Source: Armatimonadota bacterium (lineage in GTDB: Bacteria; Armatimonadota; UBA5829; DSUL01). Taken from it: a stretch of DNA of 64,000 bases. The DNA lies in NCBI GenBank assembly GCA_040769165.1, contig JAXGLP010000001.1, positions 2,284,275 to 2,348,274 of the forward strand, written 5' to 3'. A model generated the notes under the pieces. That model did no database searches. It saw nothing but the letters and a program-made list of their open reading frames with translations, and was not told the DNA's origin. A program made the position numbers and the translations under genes. Positions 5,309-53,893 of this stretch are shown piece by piece (within the stretch, counting starts at the first letter, position 1; each line of letters opens with the position of its first letter).

Positions 5309-5486
5309 GTGCGCGTTCTCCTGCGCCCCAAAGGATGCGGAGCGCGGCGGGAGGGAGCAGGGGAAGTGTGCGGTGATGAGCGGACTCCGGTGTGTGCTGT
5401 CCGAAGACAGCCGAAGTCCGGCAGGCTGGCCGAATCCGAAGCAGAGTTCTGCCCTGACTCAGCGCAGAATGTCGCGCCGCTCGGGA

Positions 5487-6776: not shown

Positions 6777-6802
6777 AGGGATTCCTTCACGCGGGCGGAC
6801 CG

Positions 6803-8206: not shown

Positions 8207-8414
8207 CGTGCCTACCCCGTGTCTTTTAGCGAGAAACAAGTGCGACGTGACAGAGCATCCCCACGCTGTCGCCGCCCCCGGGCGAACCCCGGTGCGGCCC
8301 AGACGCAGGCATGCGTTCCAGCCAGGGAAAAGCGCGCGGCGGCTGCGCCGGCGCAGTTGTCAGCAGGCCCCCGGAGCATTGGCGCGCATCCGGGGCGGGA
8401 GCGCGGGAACCCGC

Positions 8415-8870
8415 TTACTCGGCCTCTTCGGGCGCTACTTCGAGCTTGATCGTGGTCACGACCTCGCGATGGAGGTGGATCGGCACGTCGAACTCGCCTA
8501 TCGAACGGATCGGCTTGTCCAGGTCAACCTTCCGCCGGTCCACGTCCACGCCAAGCTGCTCTTTGACTGCCTCGGCTATATGCTGCGCGGTGATGGAGCC
8601 GAACAGCTTCGTCCCGGACCCCGCCCTGTGGCGAATGACGATCTTCGACCCTTCGAGCTGCCCCGCGGCGGCCTTCGCGTTGGCCACGCGATGCTCGCCG
8701 AGCCGCACCTCGAGGGCGTGCTGCCGCTCGATGGCCTGAAGGTTGCCCTTCGTCGCCTCGACGGCCAGCTTTCGCGGGAAAAGGAAATTGCGGGCGTACC
8801 CCTCGGCGACATTCGCCACTTCCCCGTGCTTCCCGACATTCGGAACGTCTCTGGTAAGAATAACTTTCAT
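8415..8870 (-). CDS. rplI: 50S ribosomal protein L9
   Basis: [36 protein letters not shown] is a canonical L9 N-terminus. The rplI-dnaB adjacency is conserved. Confidence 0.93.
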
Positions 8871-8936
8871 ATCTTGCCTATCCGGAACAGGTCCGCGGGC
8901 GGACAGCGCGCTGGCTGCCGACAGCCTCCCGCCGCG

Positions 8937-10277: not shown

Positions 10278-10284
10278 ATTTCGA

Positions 10285-11055
10285 TCAACTCGGGCCCACG
10301 GCGCTGCCGCCTCCGGCCCGCACGAAGCTCTGGATGACCGGGTGCTCCGACGCCAGAAACTCGCCGGGCGGCGCATAGACGGCGACGGCGCCGTCGTGGA
10401 GCAGGGCGATGCGATCGGCGATGCGCGCTAGCGCGCCCACATCGTGCGACACGACCACCGACGTCAGGCCCAGCCGCCGCCTCGTCTCCGCGATAAGCTC
10501 GTCAATGGAGCGGGCGGTGGGCGGGTCGAGGCCGCTGGTCGGCTCGTCGTAGAACAGCACCTGCGGACTCGTCGCAAGCGCCCGCGCGAGCCCCACCCGC
10601 TTCGCCATTCCTCCCGACAACTGGCTGGGATACAGCCCCTCCGTGCCGCTCAAGTGCACAAGCGCCAGCGTGTCCCTAACGAGAGCGGCAGCGGTCTTTC
10701 TGGTGTACCCCAAACGGCGCATTGGCGCAAGTGCGATGTTCTCGAACACGGTCATCGAGTCGAAAAGGGCGGAGTACTGGAAGACGAAGCCGACGTTGGC
10801 GCGGGCATTCAGGAGGCTCTTCTCGCCGAGGCCGGCGATCTCCTTGCCGCACAGGCGCACGGTTCCCGCGGCCGGCGCCAGAAGGCCAGCCATGCACTTG
10901 ATCAGCGTGCTCTTGCCCGAGCCGGACGAGCCGATGATGCCCACGATCTCGCCCCGGTTGACTGAGAGGTTGACCCCGTTCAGGATGACGCGGCTGTCGC
11001 GGGTGAAGACGAGCCCGCCCACGACGACCGCCTGCTCTTCCGGCGCGGCGCTCAA
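10285..11055 (-). CDS. MlaF-like ABC transporter ATP-binding protein
   Basis: Walker A GSSGSGKST, ABC signature LSGGMAKRVGLARAL, Walker B LFYDEPTSGLD. Confidence 0.9.
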   Translation of the reverse strand: MSAAPEEQAVVVGGLVFTRDSRVILNGVNLSVNRGEIVGIIGSSGSGKSTLIKCMAGLLAPAAGTVRLCGKEIAGLGEKSLLNARANVGFVFQYSALFDSMTVFENIALAPMRRLGYTRKTAAALVRDTLALVHLSGTEGLYPSQLSGGMAKRVGLARALATSPQVLFYDEPTSGLDPPTARSIDELIAETRRRLGLTSVVVSHDVGALARIADRIALLHDGAVAVYAPPGEFLASEHPVIQSFVRAGGGSAVGPS

Positions 11056-11897
11056 GTCCGCACCCCCGGCCCGAACATCAGCATGGCCAGGAAGAAGTTG
11101 ACCATGTAGATGACCACAATGCTGATGACGACGGCGTTGGTCGTGGAGCGCCCGACGCCCGTGGCTCCCCCGGTGGTACGAAGCCCCTGCTGACAGCAGA
11201 CGAGAGTAACAACCAGACCGAAGACCGCCGCCTTGATGAGCCCCATGGTGATGTCGCGTCCCGTGACCATCTGCGCGAGCGATTGTTCGAAGCTTCCCCC
11301 GGAGACACGGCTTGCGACGGCCACGAAGTAGCCACCGACAAGCCCGGCGACGTTGGCAAACGCCGTAAGCATGGGAAAGACAACCAGTCCGGCCAGAATG
11401 CGCGGCGCGACGAGGTACTCTACGGGGCCGATGGCAAGGGACCGGAGGGCGTCAATCTGCTCGCTGACCTTCATGGAGCCGATTTCGGCGGCTATGGCCG
11501 AACCCGCCCGCGCGGTGACGACGACGGCGGTCACAACGGGCGCCATTTCGCGCACGAGTGAGAGCCCGAGCCCGCCTCCGACATAGCTGCCCGCCCCGTA
11601 CTTCACGGCCAGCAGGCTCGAATAGAGGGAGAGGACCATGCCCGAGAACGTCACCGTCACTACGACAATCATCAGCGAGTTGACGCCCAGCACTCCCATG
11701 TAGGTCAGGGAATCCACCCAGACGGCGCGCCGCGTGAGGGCGCAGCCGAGGGCGCGCACGAGCAGCGTGACCGCTTCGCCGACGTTGTCGAGAAACGTGA
11801 ACAACCGCTCGAAGGCGAACTGCGTCGGCATCGCGGCGACCTTCACCACTTCCTGAGCAGTCCTGTCGAGAACGTCGCCTGTTTCGTGCTTTTGCAT
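11052..11897 (-). CDS. MlaE-like ABC transporter permease
   Basis: Multi-pass hydrophobic protein (EQIDALRSLAIGPVEYLVAPRILAGLVVFPMLT). Its stop overlaps the mlaF-like start. The start was trimmed to MQKHETGD and is uncertain. Confidence 0.8.
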   Translation of the reverse strand: MQKHETGDVLDRTAQEVVKVAAMPTQFAFERLFTFLDNVGEAVTLLVRALGCALTRRAVWVDSLTYMGVLGVNSLMIVVVTVTFSGMVLSLYSSLLAVKYGAGSYVGGGLGLSLVREMAPVVTAVVVTARAGSAIAAEIGSMKVSEQIDALRSLAIGPVEYLVAPRILAGLVVFPMLTAFANVAGLVGGYFVAVASRVSGGSFEQSLAQMVTGRDITMGLIKAAVFGLVVTLVCCQQGLRTTGGATGVGRSTTNAVVISIVVIYMVNFFLAMLMFGPGVRT

Positions 11898-12008
11898 CTG
11901 GCCCCGTGAACCGTGATCTCCGCCAGCCGAATTCCCGCACGACGACGGTGGATTTCGCGGCAAGAGGCAGTATAGTCAGGCGGCGGGGGGCTGTCAATTC
12001 GTCGGATG

Positions 12009-12057
12009 TTGCTGGTTGCTGGTTGCTGGTTGCTGGTTGTTGGTTGCTGGTTGCTGG
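12009..12057. repeat. Heptanucleotide microsatellite (TTGCTGG)x7, one unit TTGTTGG
   Basis: Read directly: ttgctgg ttgctgg ttgctgg ttgctgg ttgttgg ttgctgg ttgctgg. It lies in the divergent intergenic region between the mlaE-like gene and cas3. Confidence 0.9.
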
Positions 12058-12060
12058 ACG

Positions 12061-12117
12061 GATGTGCGGCCATCTCTGCTGGCCGCGCCGGGTCCGGGGG
12101 AGCTGTGCTCCCATCTC
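12061..12117. repeat. Left copy of a ~57-bp imperfect direct repeat flanking the CRISPR-Cas cassette
   Basis: GATGTGCGGCCATCTCTGCTGGCCGCGCCGGGTCCGGGGGAGCTGTGCTCCCATCTC matches 26819..26875 at ~52 of 57 positions. The shared peptide MCGHLCWP.RVRGSCAP appears in spurious ORFs at both sites. Confidence 0.8.
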
Positions 12118-12140
12118 GGGCTGGCGGGGTATCTGGCGCT

Positions 12141-12161
12141 CACTGACAGAATTTGTCAGTG
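12141..12161. promoter_or_regulatory. Perfect palindrome CACTGACA-N5-TGTCAGTG ~40 bp upstream of the cas3 start, a candidate operator. A TAATGT -10-like hexamer follows at 12170.
   Basis: The inverted repeat is read directly from the sequence. Its position relative to the cas3 ATG at 12200 suits repressor or activator binding. Confidence 0.35.
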
Positions 12162-12199
12162 GCATGTGCTAATGTAGCGGCGGAGGCAGCAGCCGACCG

Positions 12200-14512
12200 A
12201 TGAATACAGACGAACGCACGCCGCAAACGCTCTTCGCGCACACGCCGCCGGAAGGCTCGGATAACTGGCACCGGCTGGATGACCACCTCCGGACGGTTGC
12301 CGAACTGGCCGCGCAGTTCGGCGCCCCGTTCGGAGCGGGCGATGAAGCACGCCTTGCCGGACTGCTGCACGACGCCGGAAAGGCCGGAGACCTGTTCCAG
12401 AAACGTCTTCGGGGGCAGGCGAGCAACGTGGACCACTGGTCGCCAGGAGCCTGGGCGGCCATCACCAGGTATCGCAACCTCGCTGTGGCGATGGCGGTAC
12501 AAGGTCACCATCAAGGTCTCAGGCAGGTTGACAAGAACACCCTGCGCCTGCTGGATCCGGGCAGTTGGGGAGCGAGGCACCCCGACGGACCTGCGCTTTC
12601 CGTTGACGATCCCGGCAGGCTGCTGGACATGCTCCATGCGGCCGGGTTGGACCCTGCAGACCCTCACCCGTCGATCTACGGAAAGAGTATTCAGCAGACC
12701 GCCTCAGCTATGCTGGACATCCGCATGCTGTTTTCGGCGCTGGTCGACGCGGACTTTCTGGACACCGAGCGCCACTTCAACCACGGACAGGCGAGGCGCG
12801 CGGCGCCAAGCCTGGAGCCTGGCGCAGCCCTGCAGGTCGTGCGCCAGCACGTTGAAGGCCTGGCGAAGATGCCCGGAGCCGATCCTGAGCTCCTGAAGCT
12901 ACGCTCGGATCTGTTCCAGGCGTGCCTGTCTTCGGCAGGGAATGCCCGCCAGCCGGGGCTATTCACCCTGACGGCGCCCACCGGTGCGGGAAAGACACTG
13001 GCGATGCTTGCGTTCGCGCTCCGGCACGCGCAGCAGGTATCTGCCCGGCGCCTGATCTTCGTCCTCCCCTTCCTCAGCATTATCGAGCAGACGGCACGTG
13101 TCTATCGGGACCTGCTGGGGCCCTCTTTCGGAGAGGATTATGTGGTGGAGCATCACAGCCTGACCGGAACGCGCTCCACGGCGGGCCAGGAGACAGTCGG
13201 CGAAGGCGACGCGGTGGCCGAAAAGGAGCGCCGCCAGAGGCTGATGGCCGAGAACTGGGATGCGCCCGTCATCATCACGACAAGCGTGCAACTCCTCGAA
13301 TCGTTGTTTGCCAACCGGCCGGGGGCCTGCCGGAAGCTGCACCGGCTTGCGTCCAGTGTCATTCTCTTCGACGAAGTGCAGACGCTGCCGCTCTCACTGG
13401 CAATCGCCACGCTGAAGACTCTCTCCCGCCTGACGGCCGGCTACCGGGCCAGCGTCGTGTTTGCCACCGCCACACAGCCGGCTTTCGAGACTCTGAGCCG
13501 CGTTGTGCGCGAAGACCGAAACACCGGCTGGGCGCCAGCCGAGATCGCTTCACCGGAGTTGGGGCTGTTCGGGCGTATCCGGCGAACGAGCGTCACGTGG
13601 CCTGGAAAGGAACCAACATCCTGGGAGCAGCTTGCCGACACGCTGGCCCTGCATCCCCGCGTCCTGTGTGTGGTCAATCTCAAACGTCATGCAGCTGAAC
13701 TCACGCGCCTGTTGAGGGAGCGCGGCGTAGCTGGTGTCCGGCACATCTCCACAAACCTGTGTCCGGCGCACAGGCAGCGTGTGCTCAACGAGATTCGCCA
13801 GACGCTTGAGAACGGTGAAAGCGACGCCTGCCGCCTTGTCGCCACCCAGTGTGTGGAAGCTGGCGTAGACGTAGACTTCCCGGTGCTGTATCGAGCTATG
13901 GGTCCGCTGGAAGCGATTGCGCAGGCTGCGGGCCGCTGCAACCGGAACGGACGGCTGGAGACAGGGCAGGTCGTTGTATTCCGCCCCGAGGACGAAGCCT
14001 ATCCGCCCGGGGCGTACGCACAGGCGGCAGCGGTCACGTGGGCACTGCTGTCGAGGCTGGGCCCTGACGCTATGGACATCGACGACCCGGAGCTGTTCGC
14101 GCGCTATTACACAGAGATGTACGATATTGCCCGCCCCGAAACGCACAACCGGGAACTTCGCGATGCCATCGCAGCGCAGGATTTCGAGGCGGTAGCAAGG
14201 GAGTATCGGATTATCGCGGCGGACGCCATCAACGTTCTGGTTCCCTATGAGGAAGAGGAGTTTGAAGTGCTCTGCAGGGAGACGGAGCAGAGGGGTCTGA
14301 CGGCAAGCTGGCAGAGGCGGGCGCGGCCGTTCGCGGTCTCCGTATTCCGGCCCCGGCCGGCGGACCCGATCCGCCGCTATTTGAAGCCGGTACCCGTTGT
14401 GAGAGGAGGTGATTCGGACGAGTGGTTCATCTACCTGGACCCGGCCCACTACGACAGGGACACCGACCTTGGTCTTGTCGTTCCGGACGAGTCCCAGGTG
14501 CTTATCGCATAG
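12200..14512 (+). CDS. cas3: CRISPR-associated helicase/nuclease Cas3 (HD nuclease plus SF2 helicase), type I-C context
   Basis: N-terminal HD domain (LAGLLHDAGKA...HH), helicase motif I APTGAGKT, motif II ILFDEVQ, and a C-terminal domain. It is followed by cas5c. Confidence 0.92.
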   Translation: MNTDERTPQTLFAHTPPEGSDNWHRLDDHLRTVAELAAQFGAPFGAGDEARLAGLLHDAGKAGDLFQKRLRGQASNVDHWSPGAWAAITRYRNLAVAMAVQGHHQGLRQVDKNTLRLLDPGSWGARHPDGPALSVDDPGRLLDMLHAAGLDPADPHPSIYGKSIQQTASAMLDIRMLFSALVDADFLDTERHFNHGQARRAAPSLEPGAALQVVRQHVEGLAKMPGADPELLKLRSDLFQACLSSAGNARQPGLFTLTAPTGAGKTLAMLAFALRHAQQVSARRLIFVLPFLSIIEQTARVYRDLLGPSFGEDYVVEHHSLTGTRSTAGQETVGEGDAVAEKERRQRLMAENWDAPVIITTSVQLLESLFANRPGACRKLHRLASSVILFDEVQTLPLSLAIATLKTLSRLTAGYRASVVFATATQPAFETLSRVVREDRNTGWAPAEIASPELGLFGRIRRTSVTWPGKEPTSWEQLADTLALHPRVLCVVNLKRHAAELTRLLRERGVAGVRHISTNLCPAHRQRVLNEIRQTLENGESDACRLVATQCVEAGVDVDFPVLYRAMGPLEAIAQAAGRCNRNGRLETGQVVVFRPEDEAYPPGAYAQAAAVTWALLSRLGPDAMDIDDPELFARYYTEMYDIARPETHNRELRDAIAAQDFEAVAREYRIIAADAINVLVPYEEEEFEVLCRETEQRGLTASWQRRARPFAVSVFRPRPADPIRRYLKPVPVVRGGDSDEWFIYLDPAHYDRDTDLGLVVPDESQVLIA

Positions 14513-14527
14513 AAGAGGAGGAACACT

Positions 14528-15247
14528 ATGACGCCGTCGCGTCAAACGCTTGAGGTCTGGGGGAGCCTGGCGTGCTTCACCCGGCCCGAACTCAAAGTGG
14601 AACGCTTCAGCTACCCGGTCATCACGCCATCGGCGGCGCGAGGCATCTTCGACGCCATCTGCGTCAACCGGCACAAGTACCGCTGGCAGGTGCTGAAGGT
14701 GGAGGTGCTGTCGCCGCCCGGCTACATTGCCCTGCGGCGCAACGAGGTGAAGTATAAGACGCCCTCGGAACGGACCATTGGTCAGTGGATGGCCGGCACG
14801 GTAGAGCCGCAGCCGTTGCGGGCCGGCGCCGGGGAAGAGGCCAACACACAGCGCCAGACCATGGCGCTCAAGAACGTCCGTTACCGGCTTCACGCCGAGA
14901 TTCGGCCGTGGAACGGCTATCAGGACGAGCTCGTGTCCATGGAGGCGAAGTTCCGCCGCATCGCTGGCGCAGGCAAGTGCTTCCAACAGCCGTACTTCGG
15001 CTGCCGTGAGTTCCCGGCGTTCTACCAGCTGCTGGAACACGGCGAGGAAGGACCGCCGCCCGCTTCGATAGATGCGCACATCGGGTGGATGCTTTACGAT
15101 GTGTTCGACCTCTCGCGGCCGGGCGAATGCACCGACAGGCCGTTCATCACGCTGTTCGAGGCGAATCTGCGCGGCGGCGTGATGGCGGTGCCGGACTTCG
15201 ATTCGCCGGAGGTGCGGAAGCCTCCGAAGGAGGCCGCCAATGCTTGA
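14528..15247 (+). CDS. cas5: Cas5c (Cas5d), the type I-C Cascade subunit and pre-crRNA endoribonuclease
   Basis: MTPSRQTLEVWGSLACFTRPELKVERFSYPVITPSAARGIFDAIC is the hallmark Cas5d N-terminus. The 239-aa length is typical. Confidence 0.9.
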   Translation: MTPSRQTLEVWGSLACFTRPELKVERFSYPVITPSAARGIFDAICVNRHKYRWQVLKVEVLSPPGYIALRRNEVKYKTPSERTIGQWMAGTVEPQPLRAGAGEEANTQRQTMALKNVRYRLHAEIRPWNGYQDELVSMEAKFRRIAGAGKCFQQPYFGCREFPAFYQLLEHGEEGPPPASIDAHIGWMLYDVFDLSRPGECTDRPFITLFEANLRGGVMAVPDFDSPEVRKPPKEAANA

Positions 15248-17080
15248 CCGCTTGCTGGACTACGCCCGCGCCCAGAGTTTGGGGGCGGAGCCTGGCTTCG
15301 AACCCAAGCGCGTCCGGTGGGCTCTGGACTTCGCTAGCGACATACACCTTGGACCGAGAAGGCTTACCACAGGTGTCATCGTGCACAAGTTGGACAGGGA
15401 GCGGCCCTACCACGGCGCTACTCCATTCATCGACCTTAACCAACAAAGGAAAGCCTAGCATCGGCGTTCACAAACTCGAGCACATCTTCGGCTCCAAGTT
15501 CGCAATTGAGGGCAGAAAGCACGACTGGCACCTACGATGAAAGCCGATTCCGCGTGTTCGAAGAAGGCTCAGCAGTTGGCAAGTTTCTACAGGACCTCGT
15601 TCGGTCTCTACCTGCGACCCCGCCCCAGGCCGCAGTGGCGTGGCGCTGCTTTCTGGCCGGAGAGCAACGCGCTGTGCTTGCAGCGAAACTTGAGGAGTCC
15701 CCGTCCAGAGCCGAGAAGAAGCCGGTCCTCACCGGCGGGGACTACGCCGCGCACTGGCCGAACAGGAGCGGTGGTGGACGGCCCGCGATTGTGCGCTCGT
15801 GGCAGACGGTCGCCAGAACGGCCAGCGACGAGGGGCACCGCGATCGCTGACGTTCAGGCCGTTGTAGAATCGAGAGGGCAGTCGGGTATGTGGACAGTGG
15901 GGGCGCTTGAGCGGCCTATGCCCGCCTTCGACGGGCTAGTCCAGAGCAAGCAGGGACTGAAACTGGTCCCGCGCTGAGGTTTGTTCCTTCAATTGCGCTG
16001 CGTATCTTTCGCGCGGCAAGGGAAAGCGTTCAACGCCCCTGTACAAGCTTGCGCAGATCGTGCAGCAAAAGGGTGGAACAGCCTTATGCTCCTGACTCCT
16101 CCCGCGAACTACTGGATGACGAGAAGTTCTCGGTTTCGGGTGAACTGCACCGAAGGGAGCTACCGCAGTGGATGCGCGGCGATGGCAGGATGTTCTTCTC
16201 CACTGAAAGCAGGCAAGAAGAAGCTCTTTTTTGCCCGGAGGGCCTACACGTCTCGGGGCTTGGCGCGCACGAGGCGACCGCATACGTGACCTTCGGGCTG
16301 CGCGGATGCCGAGCGCGCGAGCGCGGGTGTCCTTCGCTGGTGGCGTGGCAAAAGGCGCTTGGCGAGCGACAGACGGAGAGGCGTTCACGCTTACGGACCT
16401 GGCAATGGCGCCGCGCCGCGCACGCCAGTGGTATGTGCGGAAGCGCACTGGGGAACGTTCCACGCTCATGTCGAGCAGTGAACGAAGGCCGTGGCGGGCC
16501 CTCTTGGGCGTCAGCCTGGGTGCCAGCGCCATATCCCCGGATGTTCTCGCTGTTTCCCGCAAGGCGGTTCTCGGCCGAACTTGAGGCATCGCGCGATGCC
16601 AACACAACGCCTGTGCGGCGCGCACGTCTCAGAAACGGTATCGAGACCGGGCTGGATACAAACCCGCTTGACCGCCTTGTCCTTCTTAACATCTGCCTTT
16701 GTTCGATGAATAACGTGGAGGAACTCAACATGGCCAATCCCGTCGGGGCGGCAACAGAATGCATTCAACGTTTACCGCATCTTCAACCTGATCTGCTATG
16801 CTCAGCGAGAGAAGCGATTGGCGAACGGGGAAGACGATTCTCGTCTCGAATGCCTCGCCCGCAGCAACGCGAATCGCCAGCATCATCCCCGCGCTGTAAC
16901 GCGGTTGCACTCCGTCTACCTGCCGAAACTGCGGCGCGACAAACCTAGACTAGCGACAAATGTTGACAAACAGCTTTCAGGACTTGCTTACGCGGCACTG
17001 AGCTGCCGTCGTACTTAATACAGAGCAAATGGGGCGGTTCTGGAAGGGATTCACCACCGAGATTCGAGAGAGACACAATG
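15240..17080 (+). pseudogene. cas8c: cas8c (csd1) large-subunit gene, disrupted. It is full length in DNA (~1.84 kb) but has no intact reading frame.
   Basis: Frame 0 at 15240 gives MLDRLLDYARAQSLGAEPGFEPKRVRWALDF..., a Cas8c-like N-terminus overlapping the cas5c stop by 8 bp. It stops after 72 codons. Plausible peptide segments then appear in different frames (15506, 15537, 15981, 16049, 16231, ...). The last ~420 bp is much lower in GC. The cas5c-cas7c spacing equals a normal cas8c length. Confidence 0.55.
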
Positions 17081-17102
17081 AACACTGCACCGAAGAGCAA
17101 GC

Positions 17103-18191
17103 TTGGCTATGCTATCGCTTTTCCCGATGACCACGTCATTCGACCCCGCGAAGAGGCACGACTTCGTGTTTCTCTTCGATGCAACCTGGTGCAACCCAAA
17201 TGGTGATCCGGACAACGACAACATGCCCCGTCAGGACCTCGAGACACGCGGGCCTGTGACCAGCGGCGCACTCAAACGCAACCCGCGACTTCATGGCGGA
17301 GGTGTATGGTGACGGCAAGGACCAACGACGAGAGTGGCCGGACGAATCTGTATGTCACACAAAGGTCTTCAAGAACGAACACCAGCCGTGCGTGCCAAGT
17401 TCGGAAAAGGCACACCGAGCAGAACCAGAAACATGCGCGCCTTCTACTGGGATGTCCGGTTGTTCGGTGGCGTCTTTGCCGTGGGCAAGGAAGACGTCGC
17501 CGAAACCGAGCCGCTGGACGGCTCGTGGATGCCGGTTCGCCCGCTGAGACACCAGCGCCGGAAAAGGACAAGGGGACTGAAGGCGAAGAAGGAAGATGCG
17601 CTGAACGGTGGCCAGTGCGTGGCTGTGTGGGGCGCGATTGGACATGGCCGAGAGACGGTTGAGGTGGTCACACCCGGCCTGATGTCGATCGTGCGAACTG
17701 CCCGGGTCGATAACCCTGCTGACGCGGAGGATCAGGATGTGGCGGTATCATCCATGCCAGGGAACTCCGCTATCTTGCCTTACGGTCTCTACCGCGGCTC
17801 GGGCCAGTACTTCTCCACCTTGGACCGCTTCGGCCAGGTTACGCGGGAAGACCTCGCTGTGCTGTGGAACGGGCTGCGGCAGATGTTCCAGTTCTCAGTC
17901 TCGGATGCGCGGCCTGCGGGAAGCATGAAGTCCCTGGGCGCATGGGTGTTCTCACACGACCACAAGCTTGGCAACTACCCCGTTCACAAGCTTCTGCAGC
18001 TCATACAGCCCCGAAGGACAGAGCAAAGCACTGCGACAGAACTGCCCGCGCGGGGCTATCTTGATTATCTGGTCGACCTCGCATGGGACGACGCCGACAC
18101 GTCGTGGGGGGTGGAAAACGGGAGACTCACCCGAGAGGGCAGAGACATCGGTGTTGCTGTCACGGAACTGTATAACGACTGGCGCGACTGA
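17103..18191 (+). CDS. cas7: Cas7c (Csd2) Cascade backbone subunit with an internal out-of-frame segment at ~17285-17400, so possibly a pseudogene
   Basis: N-terminal piece ...[42 protein letters not shown] is a canonical Csd2 motif ending at an in-frame TGA (17310-17312). A +1-frame stretch ([12 protein letters not shown]...[10 protein letters not shown]) carries the expected next motif. The original frame resumes as (F)[10 protein letters not shown]...[12 protein letters not shown]...[12 protein letters not shown]... through to 18191. Confidence 0.7.
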
Positions 18192-18194
18192 CTC

Positions 18195-18869
18195 GTGGTC
18201 TCCGGGCAGCCAGAGCGCGAACCTCCCCAGTGGTCCGACGATGAGCGGGTGATGATCAGCGCGCTCGAGCACTGGGCGTACTGCCCGCGGCAGTGCGCGC
18301 TGATCCACCTGGAGAGCGTCTTCGACGAGAACGTATTCACCCTGCGCGGCAGGCGGGAGCACGAACGCGTGGACCAGGAGACCGCCGTGAGCGAGGCCGG
18401 CGTGGTTACGCAGTTCGCCTTGCCGCTTTGCTCTGAGCGCCTGGGCGTATACGGCAAGGCCGACGCGGTGGAGTTCTGGCCGGACGGGCGAGTCGTGCCG
18501 GTGGAGCACAAGCACGGCAAGCGCGCCAAAGGCGGCAAGCTGCACGACGCGGTGCAGCTTGCCGCCCAGGCCATGTGCCTGGAAGAGATGCTCGGCGTCC
18601 GAATTGCGCTCGGGGCCGTGTTCTATCGGAGGACTCAGCGCAGGCAGGAGGTCGCCATTGACGAGGCTCTGCGCGCAGCGACGGAAGACTGCATCCGTCA
18701 AGTGCGCGCGATGCTCGCCGCCGGGCAGACCCCTCCACCCGTGAACGACAAGCGCTGCCCGGACTGCTCGCTGAAAGATTGCTGCCAGCCGGAGCTGGTG
18801 GAGGCTCTGGCGCGGGACGGACCGGCAAGCGCCCTGTTCGTTCCGGGCGAGGGAGAAGGACTGGACTAG
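18195..18869 (+). CDS. cas4: Cas4 RecB-like nuclease with an Fe-S cluster
   Basis: ISALEHWAYCPRQCALIHLE N-terminal Cys, a central nuclease motif (GKADAVEF...VEHK), and a C-terminal CPDCSLKDCC cysteine cluster. GTG start at 18195, alternative ATG at 18252. Confidence 0.88.
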   Translation: MVSGQPEREPPQWSDDERVMISALEHWAYCPRQCALIHLESVFDENVFTLRGRREHERVDQETAVSEAGVVTQFALPLCSERLGVYGKADAVEFWPDGRVVPVEHKHGKRAKGGKLHDAVQLAAQAMCLEEMLGVRIALGAVFYRRTQRRQEVAIDEALRAATEDCIRQVRAMLAAGQTPPPVNDKRCPDCSLKDCCQPELVEALARDGPASALFVPGEGEGLD

Positions 18870-18886
18870 AGGAGGACGGTAAGGCT

Positions 18887-19942
18887 GTGGCAGCGGAACT
18901 TCTCAACACGCTGTTTGTGATGACGCAGGGCGCGTATGTGCACCTGGATGGCGAGACGGTGAAAGTGGAGCTGAAGGGCGAAACGCTGAAGCAGACTCCG
19001 CTGCACCATCTGGAATCCATCGTCGTGTTCGGGCTGGTGAGTGTGAGCCCGTGGCTGATGCACAAGTGCGCCGAAGATGGCCGGGCCGTGAGCTTTATGG
19101 ACGTCAACGGCCGGTATCTGGCGCGGGTGGAGGGCGCGACAAGCGGCAATGTGCTGCTGCGGAAGGCGCAGTGGGAAGCCTCCGGCGCACCCGCGGCGGC
19201 CGCGGAGATAGCCCGGCGCATCGTTGCGGGCAAGCTTCAGAACTCGCGCTCGGTTGTGCTGCGCGCGCTGCGCGATCTGAACGATCCGGGCGCGAGCGAA
19301 GCACAGCAGGCGAGGAAAGCCGCGCTGGAGCAGGCGGCGCGGGAGCTGGCCGCGCGGATTCAGGCGCTTCCACAGGCGGGGTCCATGGACGCGATACGCG
19401 GCGAGGAGGGTCACGGCGCGCAGGCGTACTTCGAGGCGTTCGACGCCATGATAACGGCCCAACGCACGGACTTCCGCTTCGACAGCCGAAGCCGCAGGCC
19501 GCCGCGCGACCGGGTGAACGCCCTGCTTTCGTTTCTGTACGCGGTGCTTGCCAACGACTGCCGTGCGGCTCTGGAGGGGGTCGGGCTGGACCCGCAGGTG
19601 GGGTTTCTTCACGCCCTGCGGCCGGGCAGGCCGGCGCTGGCCCTGGACCTGATGGAGGAGTTCCGCGCGCCGGTTGCGGACAGGCTGGCGCTGACGCTGA
19701 TAAACCGGCGGCAGGTCGGGGCGGACGACTTCCGGGTGCGCCCCGGAGAGTCGGTTCTGCTGACCGAAGACGGGCGCAAGAAGGTGATCGTGGCCTATCA
19801 GACGCGGAAGCAGACAGAGGTCGCGCATCCTCTCCTGAAGACAAAGACGCCGCTGGGGCTGGTGCTCCACCTGCAGGCGCGGCTTTTGGCGCGCTGCCTG
19901 CGCGGTGATATCCCCGCCTATACGCCCTATATCCCGAGGTGA
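18887..19942 (+). CDS. cas1: Cas1 integrase (type I-C)
   Basis: VAAELLNTLFVMTQGAYVHLDGETVKV..., with catalytic-region motifs (NALLSFLYAVL, EEFRAPVADRLAL). GTG start at 18887 is preceded by a GAGGAGGA ribosome-binding site right after the cas4 stop. The ORF-track upstream extension (18779) is Gly/Arg-rich junk. Confidence 0.9.
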   Translation: MAAELLNTLFVMTQGAYVHLDGETVKVELKGETLKQTPLHHLESIVVFGLVSVSPWLMHKCAEDGRAVSFMDVNGRYLARVEGATSGNVLLRKAQWEASGAPAAAAEIARRIVAGKLQNSRSVVLRALRDLNDPGASEAQQARKAALEQAARELAARIQALPQAGSMDAIRGEEGHGAQAYFEAFDAMITAQRTDFRFDSRSRRPPRDRVNALLSFLYAVLANDCRAALEGVGLDPQVGFLHALRPGRPALALDLMEEFRAPVADRLALTLINRRQVGADDFRVRPGESVLLTEDGRKKVIVAYQTRKQTEVAHPLLKTKTPLGLVLHLQARLLARCLRGDIPAYTPYIPR

Positions 19943-19949
19943 GCAGCAG

Positions 19950-20246
19950 ATGCGTGACGACTATCTGATCTCCTATGACGTGAACACCGAAGACTCCGCG
20001 GGCAGGTCGCGGCTGCGCAAGGCCTCCAAAGCCTGCGTCAATTTCGGCCAGCGGGTGCAGTACTCCGTGTTCGAATGCAAGCTGAACGAGACAGAGATGG
20101 AAGAGCTGCGCCAGCGGCTGCTGAGGATTATCGACAGGGACAAGGATAGCCTCAGGTTCTACCGGCTTCCCGGCGGGCGCGAGCGCTGCGTGGAGACGTA
20201 CGGCATAGACAAGTACACCGACCCCGACGCGCCGCTCATCGTCTAG
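19950..20246 (+). CDS. cas2: Cas2
   Basis: MRDDYLISYDVNTEDSAGRSRLRKASKACVNFGQRVQYSVFECKL is a typical Cas2 fold. The ATG at 19950 lies 8 bp after the cas1 stop. Confidence 0.9.
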   Translation: MRDDYLISYDVNTEDSAGRSRLRKASKACVNFGQRVQYSVFECKLNETEMEELRQRLLRIIDRDKDSLRFYRLPGGRERCVETYGIDKYTDPDAPLIV

Positions 20247-20425
20247 CAGCGCGAACCCCAAGCGGGGACGCTGCAAGCGTGAGGTTCGCGCAGCCTGAGG
20301 CCCACTTCTGAGCGTGCGCAGCCTGCCCTGCTGCAAAAGCCGGCGGCAGGGCAGGAAACCGCATTGGTCGTCAGGAACACACGTTTTGAGCTTGAAGACG
20401 CCTGAATCGGGCGTTTTCAGGCGCC
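20247..20425 (+). promoter_or_regulatory. CRISPR leader (~180 bp) between cas2 and the first repeat
   Basis: Its position between cas2 and the array, together with a degenerate repeat at the distal end of the array, indicates this is the leader-proximal (acquisition) end. Confidence 0.6.
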
Positions 20426-23400
20426 GTTGCATCGGCCCTTCGGGGCCGGTGAGGATTGAAACAGGCGTTGAATGACAGTCTCGGCCCACGGCTCAATGTT
20501 GCATCGGCCCTTCGGGGCCGGTGAGGATTGAAACAGGTTGCCGCACTTGTCGAAGGTCAATGTCCGCATCGTTGCATCGGCCCTTCGGGGCCGGTGAGGA
20601 TTGAAACTTCTTTATCCAGTCGAACGCCGCGCCCAGGCGCGTTGCATCGGCCCTTCGGGGCCGGTGAGGATTGAAACAGGCGCAAGCGGCAGGAGTCGGA
20701 GCAGGTCTTGCGTTGCATCGGCCCTTCGGGGCCGGTGAGGATTGAAACTCGCACTGCCAGACAATCTCCATCCCGGCACGTTCGTTGCATCGGCCCTTCG
20801 GGGCCGGTGAGGATTGAAACAGATGGCGGGGCGACGGCGCTGGCACGAAAACGGAGTTGCATCGGCCCTTCGGGGCCGGTGAGGATTGAAACACACCACC
20901 TCCGGCGGGGCCGGGTGCGCGAAGGGTTGCATCGGCCCTTCGGGGCCGGTGAGGATTGAAACACCTGCACGGCCTCGGCCTGCATCGCGGCGTTCGTTGC
21001 ATCGGCCCTTCGGGGCCGGTGAGGATTGAAACAGCCAGAAGCTGACGGCCGAGCGCAAGGCGGCCCTGGGTTGCATCGGCCCTTCGGGGCCGGTGAGGAT
21101 TGAAACCTGGCTCGTGCACGAGCAGGACTGCGCGGCGCTGGGTTGCATCGGCCCTTCGGGGCCGGTGAGGATTGAAACTCCTGGAGCAGCGGCCAGTCGT
21201 GCTGGACGCAGTAGTTGCATCGGCCCTTCGGGGCCGGTGAGGATTGAAACGTGGCTGTCGCCCGTGCTGCTGGCGCGAGTGTTGCATCGGCCCTTCGGGG
21301 CCGGTGAGGATTGAAACAGGCGCAGGTCGTGGCCGCCGCCGAGGCTCAGGGCGTTGCATCGGCCCTTCGGGGCCGGTGAGGATTGAAACAGTCGGGGTCA
21401 GTCGGAGGTGTCGGGGCAGGATGTGGTTGCATCGGCCCTTCGGGGCCGGTGAGGATTGAAACCTGGCCGTCTCAACGCTCGGGTACGCGGACCTGTTCTG
21501 GTTGCATCGGCCCTTCGGGGCCGGTGAGGATTGAAACCATCAGTCCTTGCCTTTCAGTGTTGTGACAAAAGGTTGCATCGGCCCTTCGGGGCCGGTGAGG
21601 ATTGAAACCCGATTACGACAGACACCATACCATGGGGCGACATGGTTGCATCGGCCCTTCGGGGCCGGTGAGGATTGAAACGCCTCGAGGGCCGCGATCT
21701 TGTCCGTGAGCACCGTTGCATCGGCCCTTCGGGGCCGGTGAGGATTGAAACTGTCCGTGGGTGACGGCATCCGGGGCCTCGATTTCGTTGCATCGGCCCT
21801 TCGGGGCCGGTGAGGATTGAAACCGGGTGCGGAGGATGGCGGGCGCTGAGTTCAAGGGCGTTGCATCGGCCCTTCGGGGCCGGTGAGGATTGAAACGTTC
21901 CACCCGGCAGAAGGCGGTGCGAACCCGACGTTGCATCGGCCCTTCGGGGCCGGTGAGGATTGAAACAAGGCGGGCGACTACCCGCACAAAGGGTTCTCGC
22001 TGGTTGCATCGGCCCTTCGGGGCCGGTGAGGATTGAAACATCACGGAGGACGCCCGCCGCCATCTGCGCGGCGAGTTGCATCGGCCCTTCGGGGCCGGTG
22101 AGGATTGAAACCCGCTGCACAACGTGTCCGTGCGCGGCGAACTGGGTTGCATCGGCCCTTCGGGGCCGGTGAGGATTGAAACCTGTCAGCCTACGGAGGA
22201 TCCGCCAAGTCCATCATCGTTGCATCGGCCCTTCGGGGCCGGTGAGGATTGAAACGCGGGCCGTGGGTGCAGGAGTTCCTGCACGAGGCGTTGCATCGGC
22301 CCTTCGGGGCCGGTGAGGATTGAAACACGTTAGCCTCGGCAGGCACGACCAGCGTGCCCGTTGCATCGGCCCTTCGGGGCCGGTGAGGATTGAAACCTCA
22401 GCCGGGTAGAGCTGTCCCACCCACGACACGTAGTTGCATCGGCCCTTCGGGGCCGGTGAGGATTGAAACTTGACCACGCGGTAGCGCATGTACGCCAGTA
22501 TCTGTTGCATCGGCCCTTCGGGGCCGGTGAGGATTGAAACTAGCCGTGCCCGCGCCGGTCACCATCCAGAAGCGGTTGCATCGGCCCTTCGGGGCCGGTG
22601 AGGATTGAAACACCTGCACCGCGTTCGCAGTCGTGCCGGCCGTCCATGGTTGCATCGGCCCTTCGGGGCCGGTGAGGATTGAAACGGGTCAACGGGAAGC
22701 GGCATCAGGTCGTCTCCTCGGGTTGCATCGGCCCTTCGGGGCCGGTGAGGATTGAAACGCCGCGTCCTCAGCCGCCTTCGCTGCCTCCAGCGCGTTGCAT
22801 CGGCCCTTCGGGGCCGGTGAGGATTGAAACTCCTCGCAGTGGGCGCGGATCTTCCTGAAGGCGGCGTTGCATCGGCCCTTCGGGGCCGGTGAGGATTGAA
22901 ACACCGGTGAGTCTTCGCCGCGCTCCTGCGCGCGCGCGTTGCATCGGCCCTTCGGGGCCGGTGAGGATTGAAACCCGCAACACCCTGCGCTCGCTGGAAG
23001 GCCAGGTTGCATCGGCCCTTCGGGGCCGGTGAGGATTGAAACTGGTGCCGGGGCAACTGTACAAGAACGTCCAGTCGGTTGCATCGGCCCTTCGGGGCCG
23101 GTGAGGATTGAAACATCGAGCATTTCATCGCAACACCTCCGCCGCTTCGTTGCATCGGCCCTTCGGGGCCGGTGAGGATTGAAACGCTCTCCGTATGTCA
23201 TGTCTGTTCCTCGCTGCCGTTGCATCGGCCCTTCGGGGCCGGTGAGGATTGAAACAGTCAGACCAAGCGCATATACGAGAGGCAGCAGGAGTTGCATCGG
23301 CCCTTCGGGGCCGGTGAGGATTGAAACCTCGTGTGGATCCGCTGGTGGAAAAACCATCGGCGTGTTGCATCGGCCCTTCGGGGCCGGTGAGGATTGAAAC

Positions 23401-26400
23401 TTTCATAGCGTTTTGTATTTCTCCCGCAGCTCCTGTTGCATCGGCCCTTCGGGGCCGGTGAGGATTGAAACTTGCTGTACTCCAGATGGTTGTTGGCGAA
23501 CGAGGTTGCATCGGCCCTTCGGGGCCGGTGAGGATTGAAACACCTCCGCGCCGCTGGACGCGTCAGAATCGCCTGTTGCATCGGCCCTTCGGGGCCGGTG
23601 AGGATTGAAACCCGTGACCATCCGGCCCATCCGCGCAGTTGCTCCCGGTTGCATCGGCCCTTCGGGGCCGGTGAGGATTGAAACCTCGAAAAGGGCGCAG
23701 ATCACAAAACGTTCGGGTTGCATCGGCCCTTCGGGGCCGGTGAGGATTGAAACGGTAAACGTTTCTCCCGGCTGTTGCGGGTCGCGGGTTGCATCGGCCC
23801 TTCGGGGCCGGTGAGGATTGAAACGCGCGGTGGTGTGGCTGGCCGGTCGGCTCGCGTGGTTGCATCGGCCCTTCGGGGCCGGTGAGGATTGAAACAGCGA
23901 GCTTGAAGCCGAGCTCGATTCCGAGCAAGGTTGCATCGGCCCTTCGGGGCCGGTGAGGATTGAAACTTTGCCGGGGTGGAGGTCGCGGAATTGCCTGGTG
24001 GTTGCATCGGCCCTTCGGGGCCGGTGAGGATTGAAACTACCCGCCCGCTAACCCAGGCTGCGTCGCGCAGGTTGCATCGGCCCTTCGGGGCCGGTGAGGA
24101 TTGAAACGGGTTAGTTGCCCAGAGAAACAGCACGCAGTCAGCGTTGCATCGGCCCTTCGGGGCCGGTGAGGATTGAAACAGGTCCGGCCAGGTCGTTGCC
24201 GTGTCCGTCCAGCTGTTGCATCGGCCCTTCGGGGCCGGTGAGGATTGAAACTGTGCGGCCTGTCCGTGCCGGAGGATCTCGCGCTGTTGCATCGGCCCTT
24301 CGGGGCCGGTGAGGATTGAAACGTATCTGAGGACGGAGACCGCTACGTGGTGAGCGTGGTTGCATCGGCCCTTCGGGGCCGGTGAGGATTGAAACAACGT
24401 GGTAGTCGCGGACATCATCGCGCCGGACGGCACGGCAGTTGCATCGGCCCTTCGGGGCCGGTGAGGATTGAAACACGGCGGAGGATCCGTTCGGTGGCAA
24501 GTGAAGCCGGTTGCATCGGCCCTTCGGGGCCGGTGAGGATTGAAACACATCGCACCAGTGCGAAGCTCGCAGCCAGTTCAGTTGCATCGGCCCTTCGGGG
24601 CCGGTGAGGATTGAAACTCGAACACGGCGCCGGTCTTCTCAGTGCTGGCGGGGTTGCATCGGCCCTTCGGGGCCGGTGAGGATTGAAACCAGGGCGCCGC
24701 CGAGCCACTTCGTCGAGCCCAGCGGTTGCATCGGCCCTTCGGGGCCGGTGAGGATTGAAACCGCTCAACTGGCAGCCAGTCGCCGGGGTGCACTAGTTGC
24801 ATCGGCCCTTCGGGGCCGGTGAGGATTGAAACGTCCATGTGCCTATCGCGGGGGACATCGCGGCGGGTTGCATCGGCCCTTCGGGGCCGGTGAGGATTGA
24901 AACTTTCGAGGGGCTGACAAACACCACGGGCGCACTCCAGTTGCATCGGCCCTTCGGGGCCGGTGAGGATTGAAACAGCGTGCCCTCGCCCGTGACGGCC
25001 GTGCCGGTAAGTTGCATCGGCCCTTCGGGGCCGGTGAGGATTGAAACCTCATGATACCACGAAACGTGAGGCCGAATGGGGTTGCATCGGCCCTTCGGGG
25101 CCGGTGAGGATTGAAACCACACACCCCAGCGGCGGAGTCTTTTTCGTGCAGACGTTGCATCGGCCCTTCGGGGCCGGTGAGGATTGAAACGTCTCCTCGG
25201 GCGGCGCCTCAGTCACGGTGAACGTGGTTGCATCGGCCCTTCGGGGCCGGTGAGGATTGAAACGATGTATCCGATGCCGGATGTCCCGATCTCCGTAGCG
25301 TTGCATCGGCCCTTCGGGGCCGGTGAGGATTGAAACACCGGTTTGCCCGTAACCTTCCGCAGCCACCGCCCGTTGCATCGGCCCTTCGGGGCCGGTGAGG
25401 ATTGAAACCGAGCAGGCCGAGTCGAGGCGTATGCGGCAGTGTGTTGCATCGGCCCTTCGGGGCCGGTGAGGATTGAAACGGTACGTCGCAGGCGACCAGA
25501 GCGGCCCGCCCTTGGGTTGCATCGGCCCTTCGGGGCCGGTGAGGATTGAAACAGTAGCACATCACAAATCGGAGAAATGGCGGGCCGTTGCATCGGCCCT
25601 TCGGGGCCGGTGAGGATTGAAACCTCTGCTACTCCTGCCACGAGCCGAAAGACGACGTTGCATCGGCCCTTCGGGGCCGGTGAGGATTGAAACTGCGCGC
25701 AAGTAGTTGCCAATCCTCTGAACGTTGCATCGGCCCTTCGGGGCCGGTGAGGATTGAAACCTATACTACCTATAGTTGGCATGGATGGTCAAGGGGTTGC
25801 ATCGGCCCTTCGGGGCCGGTGAGGATTGAAACACGCAATGCCAGCGGTACGAGCTCAACTCGTCGTAGTTGCATCGGCCCTTCGGGGCCGGTGAGGATTG
25901 AAACCCCGGTCGCGGCGCCCTCCGCCGTCAAACACGCGTTGCATCGGCCCTTCGGGGCCGGTGAGGATTGAAACAGGCCCGGCACGTGCTGCACAAGCCG
26001 CCACTCGTGTTGCATCGGCCCTTCGGGGCCGGTGAGGATTGAAACGATTCGCCGCATGTTGCCGGTGATCGAGTCGTCGGTTGCATCGGCCCTTCGGGGC
26101 CGGTGAGGATTGAAACCACTGCTCGAATATAGGCTACAGGTTTCCCGATGGTTGCATCGGCCCTTCGGGGCCGGTGAGGATTGAAACCCCTTTGACCTTC
26201 CATGTTGCTGTTGCTATATGGGTTGCATCGGCCCTTCGGGGCCGGTGAGGATTGAAACATCATGGCGCTCGCCAAGGATGAGGTAGAGGCGGTCCGTTGC
26301 ATCGGCCCTTCGGGGCCGGTGAGGATTGAAACAATCTCACAAGAGTGAGGCCGGAGGCAACGACCCAAGTTGCATCGGCCCTTCGGGGCCGGTGAGGATT

Positions 26401-26780
26401 GAAACGGGAGCGCGTTTCTGCCGACAGTTGTCGGAACCGCCACGGTTGCATCGGCCCTTCGGGGCCGGTGAGGATTGAAACGCTGAGTGGCGATGGACAA
26501 CAGAGCGGAGTTGGAGTTGCATCGGCCCTTCGGGGCCGGTGAGGATTGAAACTCCAGCAGCCGTCGCTCCCAGGCGTCCAGATTCAGCCCCAGAAGAAGG
26601 TTGCATCGGCCCTTCGGGGCCGGTGAGGATTGAAACTGCCGGAGCGGTCGTTCAGTTTCAGCTTGCCCAAGGTTGCATCGGCCCTTCGGGGCCGGTGAGG
26701 ATTGAAACACTCGGTGGTGCCCGACATGATGGGCGCTATCAAGGTTGCATCGGCCCTTCGGGGCACCTGGCACCGGGGAA
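20426..26780 (+). CRISPR. CRISPR array of 88 intact repeats plus 1 degenerate terminal repeat, 88 spacers of 33-37 bp. Repeat: GTTGCATCGGCCCTTCGGGGCCGGTGAGGATTGAAAC (37 bp).
   Basis: Repeats counted by eye at ~72-bp periodicity from 20426 to 26744. The 3' GATTGAAAC is characteristic of type I-C. The repeat contains a perfect 6-bp stem (CGGCCC/GGGCCG) with a TTCG tetraloop. The last repeat diverges after ~20 nt. Confidence 0.97.
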
Positions 26781-26818
26781 TCACAGATTGCAGCTAGCAG
26801 AAAGCCTAGCTATTCGCC

Positions 26819-26875
26819 GATGTGCGGCCATCTTTGCTGGCCGCTCCGCGTACGGGGGAGCTGTGCTCCCCGCTC
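26819..26875. repeat. Right copy of the ~57-bp direct repeat flanking the CRISPR-Cas cassette
   Basis: GATGTGCGGCCATCTTTGCTGGCCGCTCCGCGTACGGGGGAGCTGTGCTCCCCGCTC, compared with 12061..12117. Confidence 0.8.
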
Positions 26876-27112
26876 ATCGTTACCCGTCGTTGCGAGGGCC
26901 GTCCGCGGCCCGCGGCAACCCCCATCGCGGCGCAGGGGATTGCTTCGGCGCAGACGCCTCGCAATGACGGCGCCAGTGCGCAGCAGAGCTCCGGCGGTCG
27001 CGCATGAAGGAGCCGACATACTGCAAGATCGGCTTGTGGGACCGAAGTGGATCAGGACCTGCATGAGGTCCTATCACGTCATCCTGAACTTGATTCAGGA
27101 CCCACCTGCGCC

Positions 27113-27260
27113 AACCGACTGGGCGCCGGATCAAGTCCGGCATGACGTGGCGGCGACCCACATCCGGGCCCCGTGGGCGCCGGATCAAGTCCGGCGTGAC
27201 GTGGCGGCGAACCACATCCGGGCCCCGTGGGCGCCGGATCAAGTCCGGCGTGACGTGTTA
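27113..27260. repeat. 54-bp tandem repeat, 2 full copies plus a partial copy, each containing the hairpin GCCGGA-TCAAG-TCCGGC
   Basis: GGGCGCCGGATCAAGTCCGGC(A/G)TGACGTGGCGGCGA(C/A)CCACATCCGGGCCCCGT is repeated head-to-tail. It lies between the array end and the 3' end of the large glycoside hydrolase gene. Confidence 0.85.
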
Positions 27261-27357
27261 GGTGTGCTTCGGCCCGTCGTTCCAGAGAACTCCGAACTGA
27301 TGCACACGGTGAAGGGCGCCTGCGGCGGGCTGCGGAGCACAGGGTTGGCGCCTAAGG

Positions 27358-53759: not shown

Positions 53760-53893
53760 TCACTCTCCCGCGGAACTCAAACAAAAGCGGCTGGCGCGCA
53801 CAGGGCAGCAACGCCAGCCGCGTTTCTACCGGATGGCATTATATCCGCGGGCCCGCCCGCATGCCAACGTCCGGAGCGGACCCGGGCGCCCGG

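Follow-up and report, generated by a model that had tools for sequence, protein, structure and literature searches.

What are the two short direct repeats that enclose a type I-C CRISPR-Cas locus in an uncultured member of the Armatimonadota, and do they tell us how that locus came to lie where it does? The locus is found in a stretch of 64,000 nt (GenBank assembly GCA_040769165.1, contig JAXGLP010000001.1, positions 2,284,275 to 2,348,274 of the forward strand), hereafter the window, in which all window positions are counted from its first base. The repeats are 57 nt long, the left copy occupying 12061-12117 and the right copy 26819-26875, both on the plus strand and hence in direct orientation. 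On balance, and with moderate confidence, we interpret these 57-mers as copies of a new, lineage-restricted, low-copy intergenic repeat of an uncultured Armatimonadota clade, similar to repetitive extragenic palindromes (REPs) and miniature inverted-repeat transposable elements (MITEs), that clusters at the borders of accessory DNA. The existence, structure, distribution and polymorphism of the copies, and the exchange of sequence between left and right, are read directly from the comparisons described below.

The two copies agree at 51 of 57 bases (89%), and in pairwise alignment identity drops to background beyond the bounds of both, the flanks being unrelated. The first 26 nt, searched with up to three mismatches, match just these two sites in the window and none in 100 shuffles, so that the repeat match lies far beyond chance; the last 18 nt recover the same two sites. 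An nhmmer profile built from nine copies picked up no third site, degenerate or not, in the 64 kb. Between the left copy and the cas3 ATG (12200) there are 82 nt, and between the degenerate terminal CRISPR repeat (26744-26780) and the right copy 38 nt; the whole CRISPR-Cas locus lies inside the spacing of approximately 14.7 kb. Pfam and array analysis place cas3, cas5, a cas8c-sized stretch, cas7, cas4, cas1, cas2, the leader and the array between the copies, and nothing else. A preliminary description of this DNA had reported imperfect 57-bp direct repeats of about 90% identity at these positions, one just upstream of cas3 and one 38 bp after the terminal repeat, with only the cas operon, leader and array between them, and it proved accurate in each of these respects.

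The core of the 57-mer consists of two GC-rich hairpins separated by a variable 9-nt linker. In the left copy, hairpin 1 pairs 12066-12072 with 12080-12086 (GCGGCCA-N7-TGGCCGC) and hairpin 2 pairs 12098-12103 with 12107-12112 (GGGAGC-TGT-GCTCCC); the corresponding arms in the right copy are 26824-26830 with 26838-26844, and 26856-26861 with 26865-26870. Hairpin 1 has 7 bp and can be extended to 9, hairpin 2 has 6-7 bp, and the fold energies of the copies range from -31 to -38 kcal/mol per 71 nt (z -1.6 to -4.0). All known copies are intergenic and none lies in coding DNA, the left copy being placed within a 236-nt divergent region between mlaE (minus strand) and cas3. A kinship of the 57-mer with the CRISPR repeat or leader was considered and rejected, as no repeat family joins them and the likeness is limited to a generic CGGCC...GGCCG hairpin. 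Rfam 15 returned no match at gathering score, and none with E <= 1 overlapping either copy.

The family is confined to one Armatimonadota clade, in which it also occurs at a non-CRISPR locus. We scanned one genome per species (185,579 species) for the exact hairpin-1 core and obtained seven loci, three of which are true copies with both hairpins (L007, L005 and L002; L numbers denote the loci compared). L007, from Armatimonadota MAG_6077 (a metagenome-assembled genome, MAG), aligns to window positions 5205-12339 at 91.4%, running through mlaF, mlaE, a copy and the start of cas3, and is the orthologous left junction. L002 (JAKJAB010000661.1), labelled Chloroflexota, is a 526-bp contig that matches window positions 11589-12121 at 83% over a gapped, N-containing alignment, and is probably a mis-binned fragment of this Armatimonadota organism. 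Hairpin 1 alone was found at the other loci: L001, L003 and L006 hold it in unrelated, apparently coding sequence with loop base A and were discarded, and L004, from a Planctomycetaceae MAG, was treated as a chance match.

A stricter exact scan of a metagenome collection yielded five contigs, all orthologues of the window junctions (left, L008 and L011; right, L009, L010 and L012), and four metagenome assemblies that contain the organism have exact-core matches at the two flanking sites only. With about six sites known, the family is apparently low-copy, as judged from these exact-core scans of the four assemblies, which overlook copies that deviate at one base, as L029 and L005c do. In IMG/VR, one exact-core scan detected no 57-mer, and with blastn the plasmid and the phage collections each yielded a single match, weak and partial (24-25 nt, E 0.4). 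The 57-mer is also missing from relatives with 77% and 67% identical MlaE and from a relative with 83% identical HisS.

The search of related genomes that the preliminary description had suggested was productive, leading to the second locus, beside hisS. There, L005 (MAG_6077) carries three copies within 2.1 kb, starting at 3749, 5266 and 5819 and all co-oriented with the open reading frames (ORFs). Copy a comes after aspS and hisS, an ORF of 436 aa separates it from copy b, a membrane-like ORF of 126 aa lies between copies b and c, and an end of the IS3 family of insertion sequences (IS) abuts copy c. Neither ORF has a Pfam or PADLOC match, and L005 shares nothing with the window except the 57-mer. 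A second conserved module, GCAGATYCTGCAGRAWCAGA, comes 79-121 nt after each L005 copy; it is found neither in the window nor in the 34 other loci compared, and with it the unit at hisS extends to about 100-140 nt. Within this part of L005 (3749-5917), copies a and c share approximately 105 nt, so that the complete unit exceeds the 57-nt core known from the window. The hisS-proximal copy recurs in L029 (92.7% identical), a contig that ends inside the copy. No copy is present in L030, the relative with 83% identical HisS (same sample as L023, described below); its hisS slot (3-1424), with the conserved hisS promoter on one side and the same IS3 end on the other, holds an ORF of at least 474 aa with a novel-STAND NTPase domain, a possible defence gene. 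Such different cargo beside the hisS promoter identifies the hisS-adjacent region as a variable hotspot. Homology between the 474-aa ORF of L030 and the 436-aa ORF of L005 was sought and rejected. At both hisS and mlaE, the first copy is the point where conserved housekeeping DNA gives way to lineage-variable DNA, and each accessory unit is followed by a further copy, oriented like the first.

Could the bracket around the CRISPR-Cas locus nevertheless be a coincidence, with two independent insertions of a dispersed repeat that happen to flank it? The 57-mer family does exist elsewhere, and the intergenic DNA on both sides is rich in small repeats (a variable-number tandem repeat of heptamers, 54-nt tandem units and long palindromes), which suggests insertion-tolerant spacers. 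With only the two flanking sites matching the exact core in the four assemblies, however, the family looks low-copy, and by our own estimate the approximately 50 intergenic regions of the window would give two copies in neighbouring ones a chance of about 4%; local clustering, moreover, recurs at hisS. We hold coincidence to be improbable, the least probable of the readings weighed here, and the bracket is probably not a chance arrangement; clustering and uniform orientation are non-random. According to the preliminary description, a high-copy repeat scattered over the genome at unrelated loci would make the flanking arrangement coincidental, and half of this picture applies: the repeat is indeed dispersed, with a second locus, but it appears low-copy and clustered around accessory genes.

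Among known element types, REP, BIME and REPIN sequences offer the closest comparison for our preferred interpretation. These are repetitive extragenic palindromes mobilised by RAYT Y1 transposases. Like them, the 57-mer is short, GC-rich, hairpin-forming, strictly intergenic, often placed just behind genes, lineage-specific and vertically inherited, and its copies homogenise. REP families, too, may have few members ("many 20-100 units, or even less"; PMC3733652). Several marks of these families are absent. The 57-mer has no GTAG tag, and the tetranucleotide ahead of hairpin 2 is CGTC, TGTC, GGTC or CGTA, varying among copies; compared with the CGTC REP families, which have 8-9 bp stems starting with A/T pairs and loops of 4-5 nt (PMC3733652), the stem is GC-only and the loop measures 3 nt. 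A REPIN is described, in a passage of PMC3337134, as two like REPs in inverted orientation, whereas the 57-mer consists of two different hairpins in tandem, and nhmmer found no inverted doublets in the window. In contrast to the copy numbers of REPs, about six sites are known, and no RAYT gene was seen among the sequences examined. MITEs differ as well: the 57-mer has no terminal inverted repeats, its ends (C-N-GATG ... CATCC) giving an inverted match of at most 4 nt, and the flanks of its copies show no target duplication.

Comparison of orthologous copies indicates that left and right have exchanged sequence. The right copies in L009, L010 and L012 are identical to that of the window. Left copies are unusually variable among orthologues, with up to about 9 of 57 positions differing between alleles and the 60 nt of flank shown beside them nearly identical. 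Left copies carry the linker alleles ACGGCG, ACTGTG or GCCGGG, and three variants of hairpin 2. In L017 and L028, the left copy has the diagnostic loop T and the TCCGCG linker of the right copy, for which a short gene-conversion tract between the flanking copies is the simplest explanation. Recombination between dispersed copies of a repeat family, which the preliminary description had offered as its second option, thus fits better than its first (an integrated module, discussed below), in view of the three copies at hisS and these signs of conversion between left and right. CRISPR-Cas loci can be lost via flanking repeats, for example through deletions between IS copies or between flanking arrays, and the present arrangement is similar in that direct repeats on both sides form a substrate for homologous deletion and exchange of sequence between them is seen. 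It differs in that the repeats are just 57 nt long and 89% identical, and no contig examined shows a deletion product.

The same variants bear on the possibility that the 57-mer is a cis-acting host signal that marks where transcription units begin or end, be it a terminator without U-tract or an RNA-stabilising pair of 3' hairpins (behind the array and the genes of the hisS locus), or a protein-binding or topological insulator in divergent promoters. REP and BIME elements act as such signals in enterobacteria. Two stable GC-rich hairpins would suit this role, as would the fact that three copies follow a co-oriented gene or array at a distance of 1-70 nt, and the conservation of stems where loops and linker vary; the 7-bp core of hairpin 1 (14 stem positions) is invariant in orthologous left copies and shows a single mismatch (L005c) among ten variants. 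However, these ten variants contain no compensatory base changes, and several substitutions break pairs of hairpin 2, so that a selected RNA structure is unsupported. No U-tract follows either window copy and a terminator scan was negative at both, which sets the GC-rich hairpins apart from intrinsic terminators. Furthermore, the left copy, L005a and L029 have no co-oriented upstream gene to terminate, and the left copy, being situated 5' of the conserved promoter region of cas3, is probably not transcribed with that gene. The 57-mer is also dispensable in one lineage (L035, below) and missing in relatives that share the same housekeeping genes. Roles of REP/BIME elements as cis signals are listed in PMC3733652. 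For the 57-mer we consider such a function unlikely; it could suit the copies behind genes but leaves those in divergent promoter regions unexplained.

Next, we asked whether the junction with mlaE records an insertion. Direct repeats of tens of bases that bound a defence locus beside a housekeeping gene resemble a pair of attachment (att) sites, and islands carrying CRISPR-Cas with attL and attR exist, such as Vibrio cholerae GI-24. The preliminary description had offered, as its first option, att-like junctions of an integrated or mobilisable module, a view that the comparison with relatives does not support. The junction is spanned by twelve distinct contigs (mlaE DNA 87-100% identical) that come from at least 12 samples, contigs broken in the heptamer repeat next to the left copy being uninformative, and cas3 lies beside mlaE in 12 of 12. 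The empty mlaE junction with a single copy that had been proposed as a target was thus not found among these clade contigs, nor was any other cargo at mlaE, and more distant relatives do not provide clean empty sites. The left copy is present in every conspecific contig reaching it and in MAG_6077 (L007). Beyond the clade, L023 (MlaE 77%) and L024-L026 (67%) keep the mla-rplI-dnaB-pur synteny on one side; the DNA upstream of their mlaE promoter holds other genes and neither CRISPR-Cas nor a 57-mer. L023 was rejected as a clean empty site, its upstream DNA not being homologous to the right flank of the window; that DNA holds a small ORF and the C-terminal tail of another ORF, PEP-CTERM-like by eye. 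Since cas3 adjoins mlaE in all 12 clade contigs and in none of these distant relatives, the locus was, on this evidence, gained once at the base of the clade and retained since.

The relatives of Cas3 lead to a similar picture. Homologues are 98% identical within the clade and at most 66% outside it, and in the one locus at or below 66% that was compared, in the complete genome AP024674 (Cas3 66%; L027), the I-C operon lies in a different context, between two inverted arrays, with neither a 57-mer nor any other flanking direct repeat. These arrays (5476-8695 and 17968-20200, in inverted orientation) have a near-identical repeat, GTTGCACCGGCCTTTCGAGGCCGGTGAGGATTGAAAC, and a Cas_APE2256 (Csx1-like) gene follows. 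Within the clade, L035 (mlaE 92.4% identical) proceeds from the mlaE promoter through 22 unrelated nt to the palindrome in front of cas3 and then cas3 itself, lacking the 122 nt that contain heptamers and left copy, which shows that the cassette can do without the latter. Nothing points to recent mobility of the module, or to the 57-mer belonging to it. Unlike an att pair, then, the repeats come with no integrase in the window, lie at no tRNA or other conserved target gene, show no empty site and enclose a cassette not seen in other contexts; they flank unrelated genes elsewhere, and the left one is missing in a lineage that keeps the cassette. On the first of these points we agree with the preliminary description, which had seen no integrase or transposase in the window: Pfam, applied to the cas operon, the flanks on either side and the majority of sizeable ORFs in the 64 kb, identified no integrase, transposase or resolvase domain.

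A broader version of this idea holds that the 57-mer itself is a recombination site, at which accessory segments (here the whole I-C locus) entered as circles with one site and recombined with a resident site under a recombinase encoded elsewhere, an undescribed att- or integron-like system of the Armatimonadota. Direct, co-oriented copies do delimit the accessory DNA precisely at two loci, which at hisS gives the series site-gene-site-gene-site; the first copy coincides at both with a synteny break beside a housekeeping promoter, the hisS-adjacent slot has different cargo (the STAND-NTPase gene) in a relative, hairpin-1 stems are almost invariant, and clustering is unlikely to arise by chance in a low-copy family. 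To set against this, no integrase, transposase or Xer-like gene is found in the window or beside the hisS copies, the IS3 fragment excepted, the 12 contigs show neither an empty site nor alternative cargo at mlaE, and no near-identical cassette occurs elsewhere. The absence of the 57-mer from the AP024674 locus and of the left site from L035 argues in the same direction. The integron comparison is equally divided. Small promoter-proximal ORFs, each followed by a structured repeat of approximately 60-140 nt in one orientation, give the hisS locus an integron-like appearance, but no intI was found and the attC R''/R' motifs (RYYYAAC/GTTRRRY) are lacking at the copy boundaries. The 57-mer forms two separate hairpins where attC is one long imperfect palindrome, and its copies show about 90% identity, whereas among attC sites conservation lies in the structure and not in the sequence. 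To our knowledge, a cas operon and array of 14.7 kb would be unprecedented as an integron cassette. Taken together, we regard a recombination site as unlikely, to much the same degree as a cis-acting signal.

Several observations nonetheless weigh against a REP/MITE-like repeat, the interpretation we prefer. The copies are few and strongly clustered (two here, three at hisS), and all five point the same way as the genes that they enclose. Such a pattern would rarely arise if an element with few copies inserted at random, and it is exactly what serial site-specific insertion of cassettes would produce. The first copy at both loci is a synteny break relative to more distant relatives, and the near-invariant hairpin-1 stems suggest a recognised site. 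The GTAG tag, the high copy number and the inverted doublets that define REPs are wanting, as are the terminal inverted repeats and the target duplication of MITEs, and the sequences examined contain no transposase able to move the 57-mer. L035 may be a secondary deletion, as its mlaE is nested within the diversity of the clade.

If the 57-mer is a non-autonomous REP/MITE-type repeat, it would reside in non-coding DNA that borders accessory genes beside housekeeping operons, and its copies would homogenise one another by gene conversion. It may have spread by means of an unlinked transposase, or by recombination that copied the element locally. In the window, one copy occupies the divergent mlaE/cas3 promoter region and one lies behind the array; the two jointly bracket the I-C locus and, as direct repeats 14.7 kb apart, could serve as a substrate for its deletion or conversion by RecA-type recombination.

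What, then, lies between and around the copies? The order of the cas genes is that of type I-C (Pfam), and conspecific contigs carry the full set including Csd1; in the window, this assignment is made with cas8c unrecognisable past codon 34 and with an in-frame stop in cas7. All features of the locus lie on the plus strand. The cas3 gene (12200-14512) encodes 770 aa with HD and helicase domains (Pfam), 99.6% identical to conspecific Cas3, and is followed by cas5 (Cas5d; 14528-15247; Pfam), 97% identical to its conspecific counterpart. The cas8c-sized stretch (15240-17100) has no intact reading frame and resembles Cas8c in its first 34 codons only, with no long ORF or Csd1 signal in 15342-17100. 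A divergent cas7 frame (17103-18191) contains an in-frame stop at 17310-17312, with Pfam Cas_Cas7 matches on both pieces, and is 27% identical to conspecific Cas7; cas4 (18195-18869; Pfam) is 71% identical. Adaptation genes cas1 (18887-19942) and cas2 (19950-20246), both recognised by Pfam, are 98.9% and 100% identical to conspecific sequences (tblastn). The leader was placed between cas2 and the first repeat (20247-20425), and the array (20426-26780) comprises 88 identical 37-nt repeats, GTTGCATCGGCCCTTCGGGGCCGGTGAGGATTGAAAC, and one degenerate terminal repeat (26744-26780), 89 in total, with 88 spacers.

The cas8c-cas7-cas4 stretch (15341-18870) represents a distant, different allele compared with conspecific contigs and looks decayed, its GC content dipping to 0.57; the GC content of the cassette otherwise ranges from 0.62 to 0.67, as in the window as a whole (mean 0.648). 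The repeats of the 88-spacer array are perfectly uniform. In two lineages, cas3 is broken into two ORFs (L035, 114 and at least 449 aa at 2-1722; L020, 66 and 673 aa at 47-2359), which suggests frameshift or decay in some strains.

On the left, the mlaE promoter (11969-11997, minus strand; TTGACA-17-TATACT, 11/12 in a promoter scan) is the last sequence syntenic with relatives that lack the CRISPR locus; the motif is kept in L023, L030-type relatives and L035, and beyond it all differs. A tandem repeat of the heptamer GTTGCTG (12008-12057, plus strand; 7.1 units, identified with TRF) abuts the left copy. Its units (GTTGCTG/GTTGTTG) vary in number and sequence among strains, with length variants in L008, L011 and L028, and the repeat is missing from L007 and L035; many short-read assemblies break in it, approximately 150 nt upstream of mlaE. 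The palindrome CTGACAGAATTTGTCAG (12143-12159, plus strand) lies outside the 57-mer, 25 nt past the left copy and just 5' of a TAATGT -10-like box. Palindrome and box are kept in the window, L007 and L035, with the DNA between them and the mlaE promoter differing in all three, and from this pattern the palindrome is a candidate operator or promoter of cas3.

On the right, the first gene encodes a secreted multi-domain protein of 1588 aa and the next one GH130, which corrects the preliminary description, where the flanking gene had been called a glycoside hydrolase. Other small repeats crowd the 480 nt that separate the right copy from the 1588-aa gene (26876-27357), among them a long-range inverted repeat, CGTCGTTGCGAGG...CCTCGCAATGACG, at about 26897-26969, and a 54-nt unit present 2.6-3 times at 27120-27281, with a CCGGA-N6-TCCGG hairpin in each unit. 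L012 gives overlapping matches to the 54-nt units, which may reflect a different unit number. Elsewhere in the window, a tandem repeat with a 15-nt period extends over approximately 460 nt (53297-53761) and overlaps an ORF without Pfam match, and a 115-nt repeat occurs three times (77-92% identical) at 44070-44367, inside a 649-aa ORF without Pfam match.

If our preferred interpretation is correct, the 57-mer would represent a small, previously uncatalogued family of intergenic repeats in a poorly studied phylum, and such repeats would mimic att sites around a defence locus, which calls for caution with the heuristics used to predict genomic islands. Two direct repeats that exchange sequence would also offer a ready route to delete or convert a whole CRISPR-Cas locus, a modest but real consequence. 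If, instead, the clustering reflects site-specific insertion of cassettes, it would amount to a new way to mobilise complete CRISPR-Cas systems, with the 14.7-kb I-C locus excisable between its copies, in a system that stacks accessory and defence segments beside housekeeping promoters.

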